Source: Acidimicrobiia bacterium (GTDB taxonomy: Bacteria; Actinomycetota; Acidimicrobiia; Spongiisociales; ZC4RG35). Taken from it: DNA of 64,000 nt. This document shows, piece by piece, positions 14,933 to 47,534 of this stretch; the first letter of the stretch is position 1, and the number at the start of each line of letters is the position of its first letter. The translations under genes were made by a program, and so were the position numbers. The DNA is taken from positions 319,020-383,019 of the forward strand of contig OZ242000.1 of assembly GCA_965204615.1 (NCBI GenBank), given 5' to 3'. Below the pieces are notes generated by a model. It was not told where the DNA came from. It ran no database searches and was given only the letters and a program-made list of their open reading frames with translations.

Positions 14933-15688
14933 ATGCGACTGAAAGACAGAGTGGCGGTGGTCACCGGGTCCTCCCGATCCATCGGGAGGGCCATCGCCCT
15001 CGGGTACGGTGCGGAAGGCGCCAAGGTGGTGGTCAACTACGTAAGCGACCAGGACGCGGCCGACTCGGCGGTGGCCGAGATCCAGGCGATGGGGTCGGAA
15101 GCCATCGCGGTGCAGGCCGACACTTCCTCGTCCTCGGATGTCGCCGGCCTGATGTCGGCTGCGGTGGACCGGTTCGGGAGGATCGACATCCTGGTGAACA
15201 ACGCCGGAATCCTGATCAGGACCCCCTTCCTCGAGATCGAGGAGTCGGAGTGGGACCGGATTCTCGAGGTGAACCTCAAGGGATTCTTCCTGTGCTCCCA
15301 GGCGGCCGCCAAACAGATGGTGAGCCAGGGCGACGGCGGCGTGATCATCAACATGTCGTCAGCGGGTGACACCCTGGCGGGCCGGGACCTGACCCACTAC
15401 TGCGTGGCCAAGGGTGGTGTCCGGATGCTCACCCGCCAACTGGCCTCCGAACTCGCCCCCCACAGGATCCGCGCCAACGCCATCGCACCGGGTCTGATCG
15501 AAACCGACCTGAACCGAGAAGACCTGGCCGAACCGGAGTTCCGAAACTACCGCCTGTCGATGATCCCCCTCGGAATCATCGGCGTCCCCGAGGACATAGT
15601 CGGAGCGGCGGTGTTCCTGGCCTCCGAAGACTCCCGGATGGCAACCGGATCCACAATCTACCTGGACGCCGGCCAGACCATCGCTTGA
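14933..15688 (+). CDS. short-chain dehydrogenase/reductase (SDR), FabG-like
   Basis: The cofactor motif is TGSSRSIGRAIA. Also present are NNAG and the catalytic Y..AK region (HYCVAKGG). The gene starts 3 nt after the preceding stop. Confidence 0.9.
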   Translation: MRLKDRVAVVTGSSRSIGRAIALGYGAEGAKVVVNYVSDQDAADSAVAEIQAMGSEAIAVQADTSSSSDVAGLMSAAVDRFGRIDILVNNAGILIRTPFLEIEESEWDRILEVNLKGFFLCSQAAAKQMVSQGDGGVIINMSSAGDTLAGRDLTHYCVAKGGVRMLTRQLASELAPHRIRANAIAPGLIETDLNREDLAEPEFRNYRLSMIPLGIIGVPEDIVGAAVFLASEDSRMATGSTIYLDAGQTIA

Positions 15689-15748
15689 AGCGAGGCCTTT
15701 GAGGGTTCTCAACCTTCGGCAGCGGGCAGTGGAAAGGGCTGAATGCGG

Positions 15749-17503
15749 TCACGGCGTCGTGGCGTGGGCGGCTCTTGTTGCTATTTCGTCCAGGACTTCA
15801 ATGACATCTTGATGAACCTCGGGAGGACTCAGGTAATCGACCAACCGGTAATAGTTCTTCTTCCTGAGGAGGATGGGCAGTCCCATCTCGTTGAAGAATC
15901 TCTCCAGGACCGGCGCCAGAAAATTGTCGCTGATTTTGGTGTCGATCCAGAATTGGTGCTCCAAGTCCTCCAGCGCCACGGGAGGAGTCAGGTCCGCGAC
16001 GGCACCCTCCATTGCATCCTGCCATCGCTTCCCTTCCGGGTCCTCGAAAAGGGTTGTTCCGCGTGGTTCTTTGGATGAAGACCCAACCGATGCCCGTCCG
16101 CTCTGCTCGGCGTACCGACGCAGAGTCTCTGTAGGCAGAAGGTAATTCTCAATCTCCCGTCGAGGCCACATGTGTTCCGCCAGATCACCTCTCGACCTGA
16201 GGTCATCCTGACCGAGGCGGTCAAAGAGGGCATAACCCAGCAGATCGGTCTTCGCTTCCCTTAACCCATAGAAGTGTGAACGGGCGTTGCCGGGTTTGTC
16301 GCCGACGTAGTGAACGAAGGGACGTTCCAGGTAGTGGCGAGCCTCGTGCCTGAGAATTGTGGCGAAAGCGAGCAACAGGTCCACGTCGGTTGAACCCTCC
16401 ACGTAGAGAACAAAACCGGTGATCTCGGCTTTGTAATAGTCTTCGAACCTTATGTCTCGCAGAGCTTTCAACACTTGAGCCTTCTTCTCGACTCGATGAG
16501 GTGCACCCACGAAAGCCACCAGGGCATCATGTTGAGCTGCTTCATTCAGAATCACTTCGGAGTGGGAGGCACAAATGACCTGGGTGCCGTTCCTGGCTGC
16601 AGTTTCCCTTAGCACGTGATAGATCTCCCGCTGCCTGAGAATCTCCAAATGTGCGTCCGGCTCGTCCAGTAGCAACACGCTGTTCTGGTTGAGGTCGATG
16701 AACGCCAATAGCAGCAAGGTCTGCAACATTCCTCGGCCTGCGGAAGAGAGATCCAATTGCGATCCGAATCTGTTGGCGTATGTAACCTGGACCTCCCCAC
16801 GTTCGGGAATGAGCCGCGGTCGGTTGAGGCGGACACCAAAAAGAGAGGCTATCCGGCTGGCAAGTGCATCCCAACGCTCTTGTCCGTCCTGGAGTTCGGT
16901 AACCCTGAAGCAAAGGTTGCGCAGCACTTCAGCAGTGCGACCCTCTCCTATGCGGACATCTATTGCGCCCGGGTCCAGTCGGGTCTCGTTGGAGGCCAAC
17001 CCTGACATAGGGTTGAGAAGCGCCAGCTTCGGCCACAATTCACGGGGTAGCACCGGCATTCGTTCCGTACCCTCGGGATTCCTTCGCAATGGTCGGCAAT
17101 AGAAGCTCTCCTCGTTGGTGTAGTCAAACTCCATTCCGCACGACCATTGCTGCCGGCCGGTAAGCCCTTCCACTATGACTTCTATGCGGATGTTCTCAGT
17201 ACCTCGGCGCTCATCGTCACGATAAGTCCTGCGGACGCGTAACTCCCGCCACAGAAGGCGCGCTGAGGGAACGGGCACCGGTAGCAGATCTCTGCGGCCG
17301 GCGGCTACCCCGGGACGCTGTGGAGGTGCCGAGTCGCCTCGTTTCTCTGTCCATCGCCTCAGTCCCAAATCCCAGAGGGCGAGAGCCTGCAGGGCCGAGG
17401 TCTTGCCGGAGTCGTTTGGGCCGACGAACACCACCGGGTTATCCAGTTCGATTTCCGCATCTGCCAAACCCTTGAAATCGCGGACGATCAATTTCGTCAG
17501 CAT
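15749..17503 (-). CDS. ABC/AAA-type ATPase fused to a DUF4435/Toprim-like C-terminal domain (OLD / PARIS AriA-AriB-like)
   Basis: Trimmed from track ORF 15749..18553 to the ATG at 17503 (MLTKLIVRDFKGL...). Walker A is GPNDSGKTS, signature-like LSSAGRGMLQ, Walker B VLLLDEPDAHL, and an ASHS H-loop follows. The C-terminal half carries LYVEGSTDVDLL, LFDRLGQDD and RREIENYLL. GC is visibly lower than in the neighbouring genes. Confidence 0.85.
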   Translation of the reverse strand: MLTKLIVRDFKGLADAEIELDNPVVFVGPNDSGKTSALQALALWDLGLRRWTEKRGDSAPPQRPGVAAGRRDLLPVPVPSARLLWRELRVRRTYRDDERRGTENIRIEVIVEGLTGRQQWSCGMEFDYTNEESFYCRPLRRNPEGTERMPVLPRELWPKLALLNPMSGLASNETRLDPGAIDVRIGEGRTAEVLRNLCFRVTELQDGQERWDALASRIASLFGVRLNRPRLIPERGEVQVTYANRFGSQLDLSSAGRGMLQTLLLLAFIDLNQNSVLLLDEPDAHLEILRQREIYHVLRETAARNGTQVICASHSEVILNEAAQHDALVAFVGAPHRVEKKAQVLKALRDIRFEDYYKAEITGFVLYVEGSTDVDLLLAFATILRHEARHYLERPFVHYVGDKPGNARSHFYGLREAKTDLLGYALFDRLGQDDLRSRGDLAEHMWPRREIENYLLPTETLRRYAEQSGRASVGSSSKEPRGTTLFEDPEGKRWQDAMEGAVADLTPPVALEDLEHQFWIDTKISDNFLAPVLERFFNEMGLPILLRKKNYYRLVDYLSPPEVHQDVIEVLDEIATRAAHATTP

Positions 17504-17532
17504 TGGCCGAAGTCTAGGTGAGGCCAGGGGGG

Positions 17533-18759
17533 CTATTTGGTCGCCTGATCGGCCCAGTCCGATACGATCCTGACCAGCACCCGGGTGGCCCGGTGCATGT
17601 CTGCTGCGTCCACCCACTCGTTGGGGCCGTAGAAGTTTCCACCCAGGGCGCCGAATCCCACGGCCGCCGCGTTCAGGCAGCGGATGGGGAAGCGGATGTC
17701 CGAGGCGACATGAGCCGGATACAGGTCGGGGGTGATCCCGGTCTCGACCGCGATGGCCGAGGTCGTGGCACTCACCAGTGGATGATCGGCAGGGGTCTCG
17801 GCGGGGTTGGACTGCAATCCGAACCGCCGGGTGGACAACGCTCCCGCATCCAGGGCAACCGCGTCCAGGCTCTCGTGAATCTCGGCAACCGTGCCCTCGC
17901 GGAACCAGATGGCGCCCTCCGCCACTGCCCGTTCCGGCAGCACGATCGGATCGGTGCCCGCCGCGACCCGGTTCACCGAGCACAGCACCCCTTCGCGCTC
18001 GGCCCACCGGTCCACCTCGTTCAGTACTTCCCGCATCCGGCCGAAGGCGTTGGCTCCCAGGCGCGGATCCTCGGAGAGAGGGGTCCGGATCTCCACCGGG
18101 TCGGGCCGGCGTCCCGCAGTCTCGACGCGGAAGTTGAAATACCCCCGGGTGGCGACCTTGAAGTGCGCCATCCCCTTCCCGGTCTCGGCCGGATGGCAGT
18201 AGATGGAGGTGTCCACGTCTCTGACCGCGGCCATGGCGGGCAGGGTCCCCAACCCGCCGCCCAGCTTCCCGTGCACCAGTCCGATCACCAGCCGCACCCC
18301 ACGCAAGGAGGGGAGCAGGGCCCGGGCAGCGGCCAGCACCGACACCACCCCCGCCTTGTCGTCGGCGGCGCCCACGCCATAGACCCGCCCTCCGGTCTCC
18401 GTGGCCTGGTAGGGGTCGGTCTCCCAGCCCAGCGGATCGGGGTTCTCGGTGTCGATGTGGGCAAAGAGCAGGATGCCGGGCCCGTCGCCGGCCGATCCGA
18501 CCACGCTCACCATCCGTTCCGGCTCGGCGCGGACCGGATGCGGCGGGGACCACTCGGGATGACGCTCCAATTCCGCTATCCGGGGAGTGACCAACTCAAC
18601 GCCCATTCCCAGCTTCTCCACCTCCTCGGCGCACAACTCGTGCACATCGGAGGCTTCGCCGCGGACGCTGCGCCGGGACACCAGGGCCCCGAGCAAGTCT
18701 CGCTCGTAACCGGTCAGTTGGTCGACGGCCTCCAGGGCGGCGCTCGGATCAGCGGTCAT
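17533..18759 (-). CDS. M20 family metallopeptidase (ArgE/DapE/ACY1-like)
   Basis: Motifs LLFAHIDTE and YGVGAADDKAGV (a metal-binding Asp motif) are present. Length and domain order are typical of M20 peptidases. Confidence 0.88.
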   Translation of the reverse strand: MTADPSAALEAVDQLTGYERDLLGALVSRRSVRGEASDVHELCAEEVEKLGMGVELVTPRIAELERHPEWSPPHPVRAEPERMVSVVGSAGDGPGILLFAHIDTENPDPLGWETDPYQATETGGRVYGVGAADDKAGVVSVLAAARALLPSLRGVRLVIGLVHGKLGGGLGTLPAMAAVRDVDTSIYCHPAETGKGMAHFKVATRGYFNFRVETAGRRPDPVEIRTPLSEDPRLGANAFGRMREVLNEVDRWAEREGVLCSVNRVAAGTDPIVLPERAVAEGAIWFREGTVAEIHESLDAVALDAGALSTRRFGLQSNPAETPADHPLVSATTSAIAVETGITPDLYPAHVASDIRFPIRCLNAAAVGFGALGGNFYGPNEWVDAADMHRATRVLVRIVSDWADQATK

Positions 18760-44485: not shown

Positions 44486-45303
44486 TGTGCACAAGGGGTT
44501 GCCAACTGTTGACGGATAGCTGGGTAGTGAGCTGAACGGCGACAACCGGGTGGCTATCCGCCTGCCCACGCCCCTCTCCCATCCTTCCAACACCCTGGGC
44601 CGGGTGACCACCTACCTGCTGTCCGAATCGATAGAGTGGCATCACCTGCACGACGAGTGGAGAATCCAGGCTTCCCGCCACAGGGTCGTTTCCTGCCGCA
44701 TCCACCCTCTCCTCCCGTAAAGGTGGATTTCCTCGCACCCTCAACATCCTTCGCCAACCAGAAGGTAAGTTTTCCGAAGTTCTCCCAAGACAACTAATGC
44801 GTTGGTAGTGGCTGGTAGGACGTAATAACCGGCTGTCAAGGGCCGATCGCGGTCCGAAGGCGGTGCCCACACTTCATCGCCTACGACCAGCAGCGACCAT
44901 CCCACGTTACCGTTCTGCGGTCTTCCTTCTAAAGGAAGCACTTCCCTGCCTTCACATTCCAGGGCTTATGATCGTCCAGCAGCACCTGCTGAACCATGTA
45001 GCGAGTACCAGGAAGCGGTTGGTTGTTGCTGGTGCTTCTGTGCTCAGACAGAAATCCGGATCATCATCGCCTTACCCCTCCCACCTCTTGCTCTTGTAGG
45101 AGTTTCGCCGTCCCCGATTCCGTCGGCGACGCTTCTTCTCAGGCATAGAGGCATCAACGATGACCACGCCGACATGAACCGCCTCAGGCTTCATGGAGAG
45201 GGATGGTTGCCCGACTTCGTCGACGCGGGTTTCTACCGTTGGGGGTCCTTTTCGATCCACCCGATGGCCTCTCGTTATCTGCCCAGTGGTATCGATTAAA
45301 CAC

Positions 45304-45338
45304 CAAGAGGCCGGAAGATGCGCTCTCCCGGCCTCTTG
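45304..45338 (-). terminator. stem-loop terminator candidate downstream of the His-rich protein gene
   Basis: A perfect 11-bp inverted repeat, caagaggccgg (45304..45314) and ccggcctcttg (45328..45338), encloses a 13-nt loop. It lies 24 nt past the stop at 45362. On the minus strand it is followed by gtgtttaat. Confidence 0.6.
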
Positions 45339-45361
45339 TGCTGTCTGGATCGAGTGGGAGT

Positions 45362-45955
45362 TTAGCTTGCCACCTGGATCGTGGTCTTGGCCATCGAGCT
45401 TTTGAACCGACTGCATTTTGCGGCTCCGGCGTTGCGCTTTTTCTCCCGTTTGCACTCGCCTACGGCTTGGGCTTTGATGGTGATGCTGTTGCTGTCACCG
45501 GCGAACTGCACCGTCGGGTTTAGATTGGTGGGGGACACTTTTTCGATGTGTAACCGGTCTTTGGTCGCGGTGTCGATGAAAAGGATGCGGTATCTGACCG
45601 GTTGCTCGCTTCCCTCGGCCGGACTTAGTGAGACCTCGCACCGGATGTCAGTGGCTACCGACTGGCAGGACGCGGACAGACGCGCCAGGGGATCGGGGCG
45701 GTGGTTTTCTTCTTCGTCGTGGTCGTCGTGGTGGTCGTCTTCGGGGCCGTGGCCATGGCCGTGGCCGGTGTCATAGACCCAACCACAGGTCGTGCCAACT
45801 CCGCTCGGATTGGGCAAACACAGCCAAACGATTTTGGTTCCCTCGTGGATGCCGCCGCCGTAAGGGTCGTCCAGGTCCGGGATTCCCTGGGCTGCCGCCG
45901 GAATGGCTGGCACCACCAGGACGGTGAGCAACAGAATCGATACAAGGCGTCTCAT
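45362..45955 (-). CDS. secreted His/Asp/Glu-rich protein (putative metal-binding), family unknown
   Basis: The signal peptide is MRRLVSILLLTVLVVPAIPAAAQG. The acidic His tract is TGHGHGHGPEDDHHDDHDEEENH. An AGGAG lies 9 nt upstream of the ATG. A Fur box lies upstream and a hairpin downstream. Confidence 0.7.
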   Translation of the reverse strand: MRRLVSILLLTVLVVPAIPAAAQGIPDLDDPYGGGIHEGTKIVWLCLPNPSGVGTTCGWVYDTGHGHGHGPEDDHHDDHDEEENHRPDPLARLSASCQSVATDIRCEVSLSPAEGSEQPVRYRILFIDTATKDRLHIEKVSPTNLNPTVQFAGDSNSITIKAQAVGECKREKKRNAGAAKCSRFKSSMAKTTIQVAS

Positions 45956-45997
45956 GGACCTAACTCCTAGGGGGGAAGATTGCTAAATCGATGAGAA

Positions 45998-46012
45998 TGA
46001 TAATCATTATCA
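45998..46012. promoter_or_regulatory. Fur-box-like operator, a perfect 7-1-7 palindrome TGATAATCATTATCA
   Basis: The sequence is gagaaTGATAATCATTATCAgt. It matches the TGATAATnATTATCA 7-1-7 motif exactly and the 19-bp GATAATGATAATCATTATC consensus at 18 of 19 positions. It lies 43 to 57 nt upstream of the minus-strand ATG at 45955. It overlaps a possible TTGGAC-17nt-TTATCA promoter. Confidence 0.65.
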
Positions 46013-46900
46013 GTCTGGTTGTCCAAGTTGGGACCGTTTGAGGAGTTCACAGGGTCGACCATGCGGGACATCATCGGCGGTTTGTTGGACGTGGCTCGTG
46101 TCAAGATGGGGTCCTTGCCGGTGGACCCGGAACCACCCACGGTTCTCCGACGGACCTCCCGGAGGGATTCAACAACCTCCTCCAAGTCCCACACCGAGTC
46201 GCTCACGGGTTCCCGAACCACGACAACCACGCATCCTCAAGAGTTCTCGCAACATAACCCCCCACACAGACCACGGCGCGCAAACCCGCGAAGTCGGGCG
46301 GCCTCCACCTGTCGGACCGCACCATCGCCCGCCGGCCCCCCGATGGTCAACTGGCACCTCTCCTAGGATCAGCAGGGCCACGGGACCACCAACAGTTATG
46401 ACAGGAGACGCCTGCGGGTCCGTTCCCGCCCGTGAATAGCGCCAGGTCAGGGCCCTCCCGGAGCCAGGTCACTTGGATCAGTAGTTTGCGGGTCGTGTTC
46501 GGACCCGAATTTGGCGGGTGGTTTGGTGTGTTCCCAGTTCAGAGGGCATACGGCGTCGATAGTGTGACCCCTACATTCGGGAGTTTGGGCACTTCAGGGC
46601 TGGGTGATGGTGGCTTTGTCCCAAGTGCGGGTGTCGACTCCGATGACAGTGAGGGTCCGGGCTTGGAGGGAGGTTCGTCGGTGTGATGCTGGGGGCTTGA
46701 TCGTCCGACACGGCGGGTAGGGCTTTGCTCCTGTCACCTAGATGGCCCGGGAGGTGTTGCCGCCCGCCGTGTTAGGGCGCTGATGTGGTCTTCTGATAGG
46801 AAACATGCACACTGCTTGGTGGCTGGTCCGTAAGGTGGTTGAAGGCAACCGCGCCCATGGGACGATCCGAGATTGGAGTCCTGCTGAAAGGAACACCGTT

Positions 46901-46992
46901 GTGAACCCGGTGAGGGTTGATGCGTTCGTCGGGGTGGACATGGCCAAGGGCGATCATTGCGCTCAGGCGATCACCTCCGATGGTGAGGAATC
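46901..46992 (+). pseudogene. IS110-family transposase N-terminal remnant (about 30 codons)
   Basis: It reads GTG NPVRVDAFVGVDMAKGDHCAQAITSDGEE. This resembles the canonical IS110/DEDD transposase start (hydrophobic-x-G-[IV]-D-x-[AGS]-K-x-x-H ... D-x-x-G). AAAGGA lies 9 nt upstream. Similarity ends abruptly at 46992, where the duplicated segment begins. Confidence 0.4.
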
Positions 46993-47217
46993 CAGAAAGA
47001 AGACGAGTATGAGGATGACTCATCCATTGAAGTGGTGTTGGTCGGCTCGGACTCAATAGAGTCGGTCAAAGCGACCCACGGACGGTATTTCCCGGAGAAG
47101 CCGGTCACCAACGGTTGGCTCGCGGATCATGGGCTGGTACGCGAAGCCACTGACGAGATCAAAGCTACTCGTCAGGAGTCATTACCCTTCCTGAGTGCCC
47201 AACTACCAAAGAGCTGA
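46993..47217 (+). pseudogene. 5'-truncated paralog fragment of the 47223..47534 gene
   Basis: Positions 46993..47151 are a near-identical copy of 47331..47489. The in-frame remnant (track ORF 47032..47217) encodes VLVGSDSIESVKATHGRYFPEKPVTNGWLADHGLVREAT and then diverges. Confidence 0.5.
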
Positions 47218-47222
47218 GCACC

Positions 47223-47534
47223 ATGAGCGATCCCATTTTGCATTATTTGATTGTGTTCGACCGTAAGACCCTGACGCGTGAGATTCTTGAATTCGGTGAG
47301 GACATTCAAGCCGCTTTGGCTGCGTATGCCCAGAAGGAAGACGAGTATGAGAGTGACTCATCCATTGAAGTTGTGTTGGTCGGCTCGGACTCAATAGAGT
47401 CGGTAAAAGCGACCCACGGAAGGTATTTCCCGGAGAAGCCTGTCACCAACGGTTGGCTCGCGGATTATGGGTTGGTACGGGAAGCCACTTCTGATCCCTC
47501 CCTCCTTGGCGAAGCCGCCCCCGCAAGGGGATAA
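47223..47534 (+). CDS. hypothetical protein (103 aa)
   Basis: The protein begins MSDPILHYLIVFDRKTLTREILEFGEDIQAALAAYAQKEDEYESDSSIEVVLVGSDSIESVKATHGRYF.... It is intact and has a fragmentary paralog just upstream. No family was recognised. Confidence 0.6.
   Translation: MSDPILHYLIVFDRKTLTREILEFGEDIQAALAAYAQKEDEYESDSSIEVVLVGSDSIESVKATHGRYFPEKPVTNGWLADYGLVREATSDPSLLGEAAPARG
47331..47489. repeat. 159-bp direct repeat, copy B (copy A is at 46993..47151)
   Basis: Aligned by eye, there are about ten mismatches over 159 bp. Similarity stops sharply at both ends. Confidence 0.9.

Follow-up and report, generated by a model that had tools for sequence, protein, structure and literature searches.

A single-chain ATPase-Toprim gene of probable OLD/PARIS-type affinity at a variable M20 peptidase-dehydrogenase junction of an Acidimicrobiia bacterium

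The locus and its base composition

We analyzed a 64,000-nucleotide stretch of an Acidimicrobiia bacterium genome (assembly GCA_965204615.1, contig OZ242000.1), hereafter called the window, on which all coordinates are based unless another locus is named, and focused on a gene for an ATPase joined to a Toprim-like domain that lies between genes for an M20 peptidase and a short-chain dehydrogenase (SDR). The ATPase-Toprim gene is complete (15749..17503, minus strand), as judged from its open reading frame (ORF), its translation, its homologues and its ratio of nonsynonymous to synonymous substitution rates (dN/dS); the ORF runs from an ATG at 17503 to a stop codon at 15749-15751 and yields a product of 584 amino acids. 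A longer, mechanically called ORF reaching 18553 reads through the M20 region out of frame and was set aside. Our findings suggest that the product is probably a standalone, single-chain ATPase of the OLD superfamily fused to a Toprim and helical nuclease module, and that an accessory gene acting in genetic conflict or anti-phage defence is the most likely identity of the locus.

The M20 peptidase gene is upstream on the same strand (17533-18759, minus; PF01546 and ORF evidence), and 29 nucleotides separate its end from the ATG of the ATPase-Toprim gene. On the other side, 60 nucleotides away and convergent, is the SDR gene (14933-15688, plus), an ORF whose 88-92% orthologues carry adh_short. 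The ORF map, PF01546 and the SDR orthologues thus bear out the placement given in a preliminary description of the locus. Its view of the product as a single polypeptide with no partner gene also held, as none was found in the window or in six more loci with close homologues, of which five share the M20-SDR position and the sixth lies in another genomic setting. Because the gene and the M20 gene overlap or are separated by gaps of at most 29 nucleotides, and no promoter-like site was found, the two are probably co-transcribed. Searches for att-like repeats, terminators and promoters flanking the low-GC islet returned nothing above chance, and neither Rfam families nor tRNAs were matched anywhere in the window.

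The islet is a variable segment of 57.5% GC, whose limits coincide exactly with the stop codons of the SDR and M20 genes (15689..17532, unstranded). The ATPase-Toprim gene itself has 57.2% GC, with 400-nucleotide windows as low as 52.7%, against 69.2% for the M20 gene and a mean of 64.4% for the window, and among gene-sized stretches of the 64 kb it has the lowest GC content (z = -2.5; equally low values occur in 0.16% of sliding windows). The low GC content that had been described is therefore real, but the M20 gene had been put at about 75%, so that the contrast was overstated. GC content at third codon positions (GC3) is 0.64 in the ATPase-Toprim gene versus 0.85 in both neighbours. This depression is persistent, as all syntenic copies have values of 0.64-0.70; in Candidatus Spongiisocius, where a copy occupies a different locus, GC3 is native-like (0.82). 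Measured against a 97%-identical orthologue, dN/dS is 0.235 for the whole gene, and the values for the two halves (0.28 for the ATPase, 0.19 for the C-terminal half, versus 0.27 for M20) indicate purifying selection in both. Elsewhere in the window, an ORF-poor region of about 58-59% GC (44500-47500) between triosephosphate-isomerase-like and phosphoglycerate-mutase-like genes contains a 160-nucleotide direct repeat (46992-47151 and 47330-47489; 94% identity, 338 nucleotides apart) that duplicates part of a small ORF.

An ABC-type ATPase followed by a Toprim-like module

All seven motifs quoted in the preliminary description were recovered upon re-translation, at residues 28, 252, 276, 312, 366, 426 and 448. 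The first four belong to the ABC/SMC-type ATPase domain (residues 1-337; 16493..17503, minus), which was delimited with Pfam, a profile search of Protein Data Bank (PDB) sequences and Foldseek. On sequence grounds, the assignment of the N-terminal half to this ATPase type is certain: Pfam returned AAA_21 (6.8e-23), AAA_15 (1.4e-17) and SMC_N (7.7e-11), all above cutoff, which together with the invariant motifs confirms what had been proposed. We scored motif conservation in alignments of 52 and 64 homologues, the latter at 34-52% identity. Across the 64 diverse members, G28, G33 and K34 are invariant in the Walker A motif or P-loop, GPNDSGKT (residues 28-35; 17399..17422, minus). The ABC signature-like LSSAGRGMLQ (residues 252-261; 16721..16750, minus) has invariant G258 and Q261, the Walker B and D-loop VLLLDEPDAHL (residues 276-286; 16646..16678, minus) has invariant E281, P282 and H285 and a nearly invariant D280, and the H-loop ASHS (residues 312-315; 16559..16570, minus) has invariant H314 and S315. 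With its motifs invariant or nearly so, the ATPase is predicted to be competent.

A profile built from the 52-sequence family alignment matched, among PDB sequences, the OLD protein of Thermus scotoductus (5e-11), along with GajA, Rad50, SMC and PtuA; these matches were confined to the ATPase region, and AriA reached only E 0.17. The full-length AlphaFold2 (AF2) model has a mean predicted local distance difference test score (pLDDT) of 80.9, and its best Foldseek match was again the Thermus OLD protein (6p74, 1e-13), with GajA aligning over the full length. Between Walker A and the signature, the model contains an insertion that is beta-rich and includes two helices. Residues 163-192 (16928-17017) form the lowest-confidence loop of the model, with a pLDDT of about 40, yet they are among the most conserved segments of the insertion, with the pattern PMSGL..E.....G.I...IGEGRT and several invariant residues. 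This may be a functional loop that becomes ordered only upon nucleotide, substrate or partner binding.

The C-terminal half consists of a Toprim-like core (residues 364-455; 16139..16414, minus), in which AF2 places beta1, a helix, beta2, a helix, beta3 and beta4 in that order, and an all-helical domain delimited from the AF2 secondary structure (residues 457-584; 15752..16135, minus), in which K523 and K548 are conserved. The AF2 model of residues 338-584 that shows this arrangement, the Toprim strand and helix order followed by the all-helical domain, is a confident one, with a pLDDT of 88.8 and a predicted template modelling score of 0.86. In a Foldseek search of this model against the PDB, the top seven matches all belonged to the OLD family (E 0.011-0.16). 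They were led by the C-terminal regions of class 2 OLD proteins (6njx, 6nk8, 6njw and 6njv; E 0.011-0.021, probability 0.99-1.00, template modelling (TM) scores 0.39-0.50), and the next ranks were a second 6nk8 chain, GajA and the Thermus scotoductus OLD protein. Solved OLD C-terminal regions likewise pair the Toprim domain with a helical domain (PMC6755086).

Pairwise and profile comparisons extended this result to sequence. A tblastn search against plasmids retrieved distant fused proteins, including an 'ATP-dependent endonuclease' of the haloarchaeon Natrinema thermotolerans (QCC61759.1) that carries OLD-like_TOPRIM above the Pfam threshold (29.1 vs 23.2 bits). BLASTP aligned it with the window protein in a single segment from the signature motif to RREIENY (E 5e-12, 26% identity), in which FVLYVEGSTD is paired with FVIYVEGPSD and LFD with LFDSD, and RREIENY is identical. 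Using hhalign, a family C-terminal profile aligned with the Natrinema protein at 94% probability (E 1.4e-7) and with a Nostoc plasmid protein at 84.5% over 102 columns. The same kind of comparison with the single P2 Old sequence aligned motif I alone at 0.9% probability and was uninformative. A PDB profile search with the family C-terminus gave no sequence link to Escherichia coli AriB or to solved OLD proteins.

Profile libraries gave a mixed picture. Residues 349-584 alone matched no Pfam family at E<=10. Among 42 isolated family C-termini, none matched DUF4435 at E<=1, and two matched OLD-like_TOPRIM (PF20469), both below threshold (best 1.6e-4). The DUF4435 membership suggested by the preliminary description is therefore not supported. 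In the defence libraries, where the PADLOC evidence consists of individual profile matches, the three best matches of the full protein were AriA, AriA and AriAB, all from PADLOC; the AriAB match (68.8 bits, 9.9e-20) aligned residues 252-460, with most of the score coming from the ATPase. The window's C-terminus alone matched PADLOC AriAB at 12.1 bits (E 0.014), over the stretch from FDR to RREIENY only. Among the isolated family C-termini, AriAB matched 15 of 42 (best 5.9e-7) and AriB three (best 1.8e-6), and no other defence profile recurred; GajA and Old models matched none of the 42, and several PADLOC GajA profiles aligned across the ATPase-Toprim junction of the full protein. The clade is thus invisible to Pfam Toprim-type models, yet flagged by PADLOC AriAB; among sequence profiles those of the PARIS type come closest to it, and among solved folds the C-terminal regions of OLD proteins. 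Because four independent lines, namely fold, pairwise alignment, profile alignment and defence-library profiles, converge, we place the C-terminus in the OLD/PARIS Toprim superfamily, and the acidic Toprim type proposed earlier stands on these comparisons and on the conservation of E369, D373, D428, E450 and E452.

These profiles raise the question of whether the protein is specifically a fused PARIS (AriAB, class 4 OLD), in which an AriA-like half would sense Ocr-type anti-restriction proteins and an AriB-like half would cleave particular tRNAs. The ranking of the AriA and AriAB profiles, the recurrence of AriAB and AriB on isolated C-termini, the documented existence of AriAB fusions (PMC9122126, PMC11464382) and an E-x3-D spacing identical to that of AriB E26/D30 all agree with it. 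However, DUF4435 is undetected both in the window protein and in the 42 family C-termini, and related proteins match OLD-like_TOPRIM instead. Neither AriB nor AriA structures are among the top C-terminal fold matches, AriA scored as poorly as stated above in the PDB profile search, and the model has no AriA-like long coiled-coil insertion. We therefore regard membership in PARIS proper as rather unlikely.

The candidate catalytic residues follow the order seen in characterized enzymes. Toprim motif I, LYVEGSTDVDLL (from residue 366; 16373..16408, minus), contains E369, the candidate invariant Toprim glutamate, and D373 four residues on, and aligns to FVIYVEGPSD of the Natrinema OLD protein and VLLVEGKTE of P2 Old. 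A degenerate DxD motif, LFDRLGQDD (from residue 426; 16202..16228, minus), aligns to the Natrinema LFDSD; D428 is nearly invariant, and the residue two positions on is Leu, not Asp/Glu. After beta4, RREIENYLL (from residue 448; 16136..16162, minus) provides E450 and E452 as candidate metal-B ligands. D373 is invariant, conservation reaches at least 90% at E369, D428, E450, E452, N453, Y454 and K548, and E452 does not vary in the family alignment designated A6. The linear order of E369, D373, D428, E450, E452 and K548 matches E400, E404, D455, T506, E508 and K562 of the Burkholderia pseudomallei (Bp) OLD protein (PMC6755086), and E369, D373, D428 and the E450/E452 element correspond in order to E26, D30, D88 and E122 of AriB (PMC11464382). 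The second DxD residue is D457 in Bp OLD (PMC6755086) and E90 in AriB (PMC11464382). From their sequence positions, E369, D373, D428, E450 and E452 would be expected to cluster spatially into a metal site.

A variable junction and a widespread family

The gene order M20, ATPase, SDR and NicX recurs in relatives whose ATPase-Toprim proteins are 97, 80, 72 and 65% identical to that of the window, and the protein diverges about as fast as the M20 protein. Two relatives without the gene, L088 and L089, have M20 proteins (78% and 77% identity) that are more similar to that of the window than are those of the carriers L001-L003, and tblastn detected no remnants of the gene in either. Instead, the slot contains 1.5 kb with small ORFs only in L088 and a DUF222/HNH gene in L089, and in a third relative, L090, it is filled by an AAA_14/DUF4143 gene. 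With these three, blastn homology to the window is lost around 17520-17540 and picks up again at 15684. The similarity matrices of M20 and the ATPase are mildly incongruent, in that they do not place L002 and L003 in the same order. In L002, genes for DUF433, PIN-like and nucleotidyltransferase (NTP_transf_2) proteins stand between the ATPase and SDR genes (L002 11925-12995), with a PemK toxin gene nearby; because of these insertions and PemK, the slot can be said to accumulate toxin-antitoxin-type cargo. L090 carries a second-site member of the family (L090 1832-3546, minus; 48-61% identical) two genes from the slot, with a hydantoinase and an amidohydrolase gene as its neighbours. Its appearance in two tblastn segments and its called length of 532 amino acids suggest that it may have a frameshift or lack part of its N-terminus.

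Overall, in this lineage the M20-SDR junction resembles a small hotspot for defence or mobile genes. Horizontal acquisition, argued for in the preliminary description, is upheld insofar as the gene is accessory, is swapped for other cargo at the same junction and is non-native in composition. A recent arrival is rejected, given synteny at 65-97% identity, M20-like divergence and purifying selection. The same description took conservation at this position with native codon usage to be the mark of a housekeeping gene; we found the position to be conserved only in part and the codon usage to be not native at all, so that the accessory reading stands.

Beyond this lineage, the family is large. More than 120 full-length homologue clusters were found at >=54% identity, and a C-terminal profile retrieved 878 clusters (50% identity level) at E<=1e-3, the 150 best of which are, without exception, proteins of this fused layout or pieces of such proteins. 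A scan of species-representative genomes yielded 260 relatives; the neighbourhood and phylum counts that follow refer to the best 80 of these, which are 45-63% identical, with some counts made on 76 loci. They come from more than 15 phyla, including Acidimicrobiia, Acidobacteriota, Planctomycetota, Chloroflexota, Poribacteria, Proteobacteria, Bacteroidota and Omnitrophota, plus Bathyarchaeota. Because identity does not follow taxonomy, horizontal transfer is implied. The archaeal member (L014 8001-9719), from a Candidatus Bathyarchaeota metagenome-assembled genome (MAG), is full-length, and its 51% identity equals that of members from many bacterial phyla, suggesting transfer between domains or, possibly, contamination during binning.

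Neighbouring genes vary across the 80 loci. Adjacency to an M20 gene is confined to close relatives of the window, being seen at 0 of the 80 other loci, and no neighbour family occurs in more than 9-10 of them; both an obligate M20 partnership and a conserved partner gene were accordingly rejected. Restriction-modification, helicase or methylase neighbours are present in roughly a fifth of the loci, the recurrent ones being ResIII helicases (about 10 loci), N6_N4 methylases (5), SNF2 (4) and UvrD (2), with type I S and R subunits and DUF1156 methylases as further defence-type neighbours. This pattern agrees with that of class 1 OLD genes, which are standalone, vary in context and occasionally lie in defence islands (PMC10568477). 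In one locus (L009 4273-13371), genes for a 1190-residue SNF2/ResIII helicase with NOV_C and a 981-residue DUF1156 DNA methyltransferase flank the family gene in the same orientation, which may represent a multi-gene restriction-like system that recruited the ATPase-Toprim protein. A distant homologue (25.8% identity, 625 amino acids, no Pfam Toprim match) is encoded between pglX and pglZ of an annotated BREX-1 system on plasmid pNsp_c of Nostoc sp. ATCC 53789 (L092 2501-4378), which suggests that OLD/PARIS-like accessory genes occur inside BREX operons. Another distant plasmid homologue adjoins a Dcm/PmeII restriction-modification pair with a RelE/Phd module.

The junction and family data also bear on whether the protein could instead be a cellular, non-defence OLD-like ATPase-nickase, acting in chromosome maintenance, repair or the cell cycle like archaeal Cran1 and retained vertically beside M20. 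The M20-ATPase-SDR synteny in five relatives (65-97% identity, M20-like divergence), the purifying selection, the probable co-transcription with M20, the housekeeping neighbours at most family loci and the precedent of Cran1 (PMC12796447) are all in line with such a role. Nevertheless, the gene and its remnants are absent from the same junction in L088 and L089 although their M20 proteins (77-78%) are closer than those of the carriers L001-L003, the slot holds mobile-type cargo (HNH/DUF222, AAA_14/DUF4143 and toxin-antitoxin genes), GC3 remains persistently non-native, identities of about 50% across phyla and domains imply horizontal transfer, and the M20 linkage is seen in 0/80 other loci. 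A housekeeping function is thus improbable.

Interpretation and comparison with known systems

Class 1 OLD and fused PARIS (AriAB) have the same architecture as the window protein, which is thus of an already known kind. From family and context we infer an immune role, and by analogy we postulate nuclease activity together with a substrate, a trigger and a defence phenotype. In the proposed mechanism, the ABC domain would bind and hydrolyze ATP, act as a sensor and regulator and gate the Toprim/helical module, which would cut nucleic acid by metal-ion catalysis, with metal A held via E369 and D428 and metal B via D373, E450 and E452. The target could be the anticodon arm of tRNA, by analogy to AriB and, from more recent work, P2 Old, both of which have been shown to cleave there (PMC12409363, PMC12445682). 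Alternatively, the module could nick or degrade DNA, by analogy to the Thermus scotoductus and Bp OLD proteins. In either case, the outcome would be arrest of the infected cell.

Several observations weigh against the reading of the gene as an OLD-type defence nuclease. The Foldseek E-values of the isolated C-terminal domain are marginal (about 0.01, at TM 0.4-0.5), and AriB structures fell outside its top 50 matches. A Foldseek search of the same model against the viral BFVD gave nothing below E 0.5. The Pfam Toprim-type models DUF4435, OLD-like_TOPRIM and DUF3226 do not match the window protein, and two family C-terminal profiles (A2 and A6) returned only chance matches among all PDB sequences (Nop58, uS2m and a bile-acid receptor). 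The second acidic residue of the DxD motif is absent family-wide, being Leu here at an unconserved position. Finally, synteny is stable in five related genomes, the neighbours are exclusively housekeeping genes at about three quarters of family loci, and the clade is experimentally uncharacterized.

It is very improbable that the Toprim is catalytically dead or only binds nucleic acid, which would make the protein a purely DNA/RNA-binding or SMC/RecF-like factor powered by ATP, or else one that regulates unlinked genes or partners their toxins. The family-wide lack of the second DxD residue, the lack of any Pfam Toprim model at threshold and the example of GajA, in which the ATPase of an OLD protein has ceased to hydrolyze and turned regulatory (PMC10568477), are in its favour. 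Against it, the five other acidic residues and N453, Y454 and K548 are invariant or nearly so under purifying selection (dN/dS 0.19 for the C-terminal half), D457 of Bp OLD contacts metal A via water only and single substitutions in that enzyme are tolerated (PMC6755086), and E450 and E452 could supply the missing ligand. A tentative extension of the OLD-type defence reading is that this large uncharacterized OLD-superfamily clade (>=878 clusters at 50% identity, including the Bathyarchaeota MAG) could form a distinct OLD class of partnerless, self-contained sensor-effectors. Its marks would be a Toprim domain that no Pfam Toprim model detects, the degenerate motif D-x-L and a characteristic ExE-N-Y metal-B element.

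Single-chain ATPase-Toprim proteins (class 1 OLD and fused PARIS) are the least understood OLD-type systems, and P2 Old was reportedly long the only member with a defined defence phenotype. The family described here, abundant in uncultivated phyla and missed by Pfam Toprim models, offers a well-defined candidate set for asking whether one polypeptide can both sense and kill. If it were a distinct OLD class, it would provide a bacterial example of a single OLD-type protein sufficing for defence, a sufficiency posed as an open question by Akritidou & Thurtle-Schmidt (2023), and the M20-SDR slot would be a defence hotspot in sponge-symbiont Acidimicrobiia. The junction is a practical place to seek further accessory genes. 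A modest practical result concerns annotation, where 'OLD/PARIS-like ATP-dependent nuclease' should replace 'AAA family ATPase'.

Compared with known systems, several memberships were rejected. Gabija GajA was dismissed because the window encodes no UvrD/GajB partner and UvrD is a neighbour in only 2/76 family loci. Class 3 (retron-associated) OLD does not apply, as there is no reverse transcriptase among the neighbours and no Rfam family in the window. The match to MADS Mad3 (NCBIfam NF047739) reached 40.5 bits against a cutoff of 420, with no MADS genes nearby, and matches to Septu PtuA were confined to the ATPase half, with no PtuB gene present. The closest annotated protein with a threshold-passing OLD-like_TOPRIM is the Natrinema protein QCC61759.1, which differs in its full DSD motif and is itself experimentally uncharacterized.

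Class 2 OLD proteins (Burkholderia pseudomallei and Xanthomonas campestris; 6NK8, 6NJV-X) and GajA are the best fold matches of the isolated C-terminus and resemble it in having, after the Toprim domain, a helical domain that supplies residues to the active site. By contrast, TM scores are only 0.4-0.5, and the equivalent of D457 is missing in the window protein. Fused AriAB PARIS (class 4 OLD; Rousset 2022, Burman 2024) also joins an AAA_15/AAA_21 ATPase to a Toprim nuclease in one polypeptide, and the spacing of E-x3-D, then D, then E resembles that of E26, D30, D88 and E122 in AriB. Fused AriAB forms are documented (PMC9122126, PMC11464382), and a literature search for an experimentally tested one was unproductive. 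Unlike PARIS, the window protein has no DUF4435 (PF14491) match at >=27 bits, the detection rule of Rousset 2022, AriB (8UX9) is no top fold match, and an equivalent of E90 is absent. As judged from the model, the long coiled-coil insertion of AriA is likewise missing, and nothing in the model points to an AriA-type hexamer architecture.

Class 1 OLD, represented by P2 Old and Thermus scotoductus OLD (6P74), differs in that identity is about 15%, DxD is reduced to D-x-L in the window protein, and OLD-like_TOPRIM gives P2 Old 64.6 bits and the window protein nothing. In addition, the ATPase insertion is modelled as beta-rich with two helices and would not correspond to the OLD dimerization domain. 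Whether fused AriAB differs from class 1 OLD is reported to be unsettled (PMC10568477). At the same time, the window gene shares with class 1 OLD its standalone, single-gene form in variable neighbourhoods, and its product shares the succession of an N-terminal ABC ATPase, a C-terminal Toprim domain and a helical region, at 584 amino acids versus 586 and 528. Motif I (VEGxTD/E) aligns with that of P2 Old, and Thermus scotoductus OLD is the best match for both the full-length profile and the full-length model.

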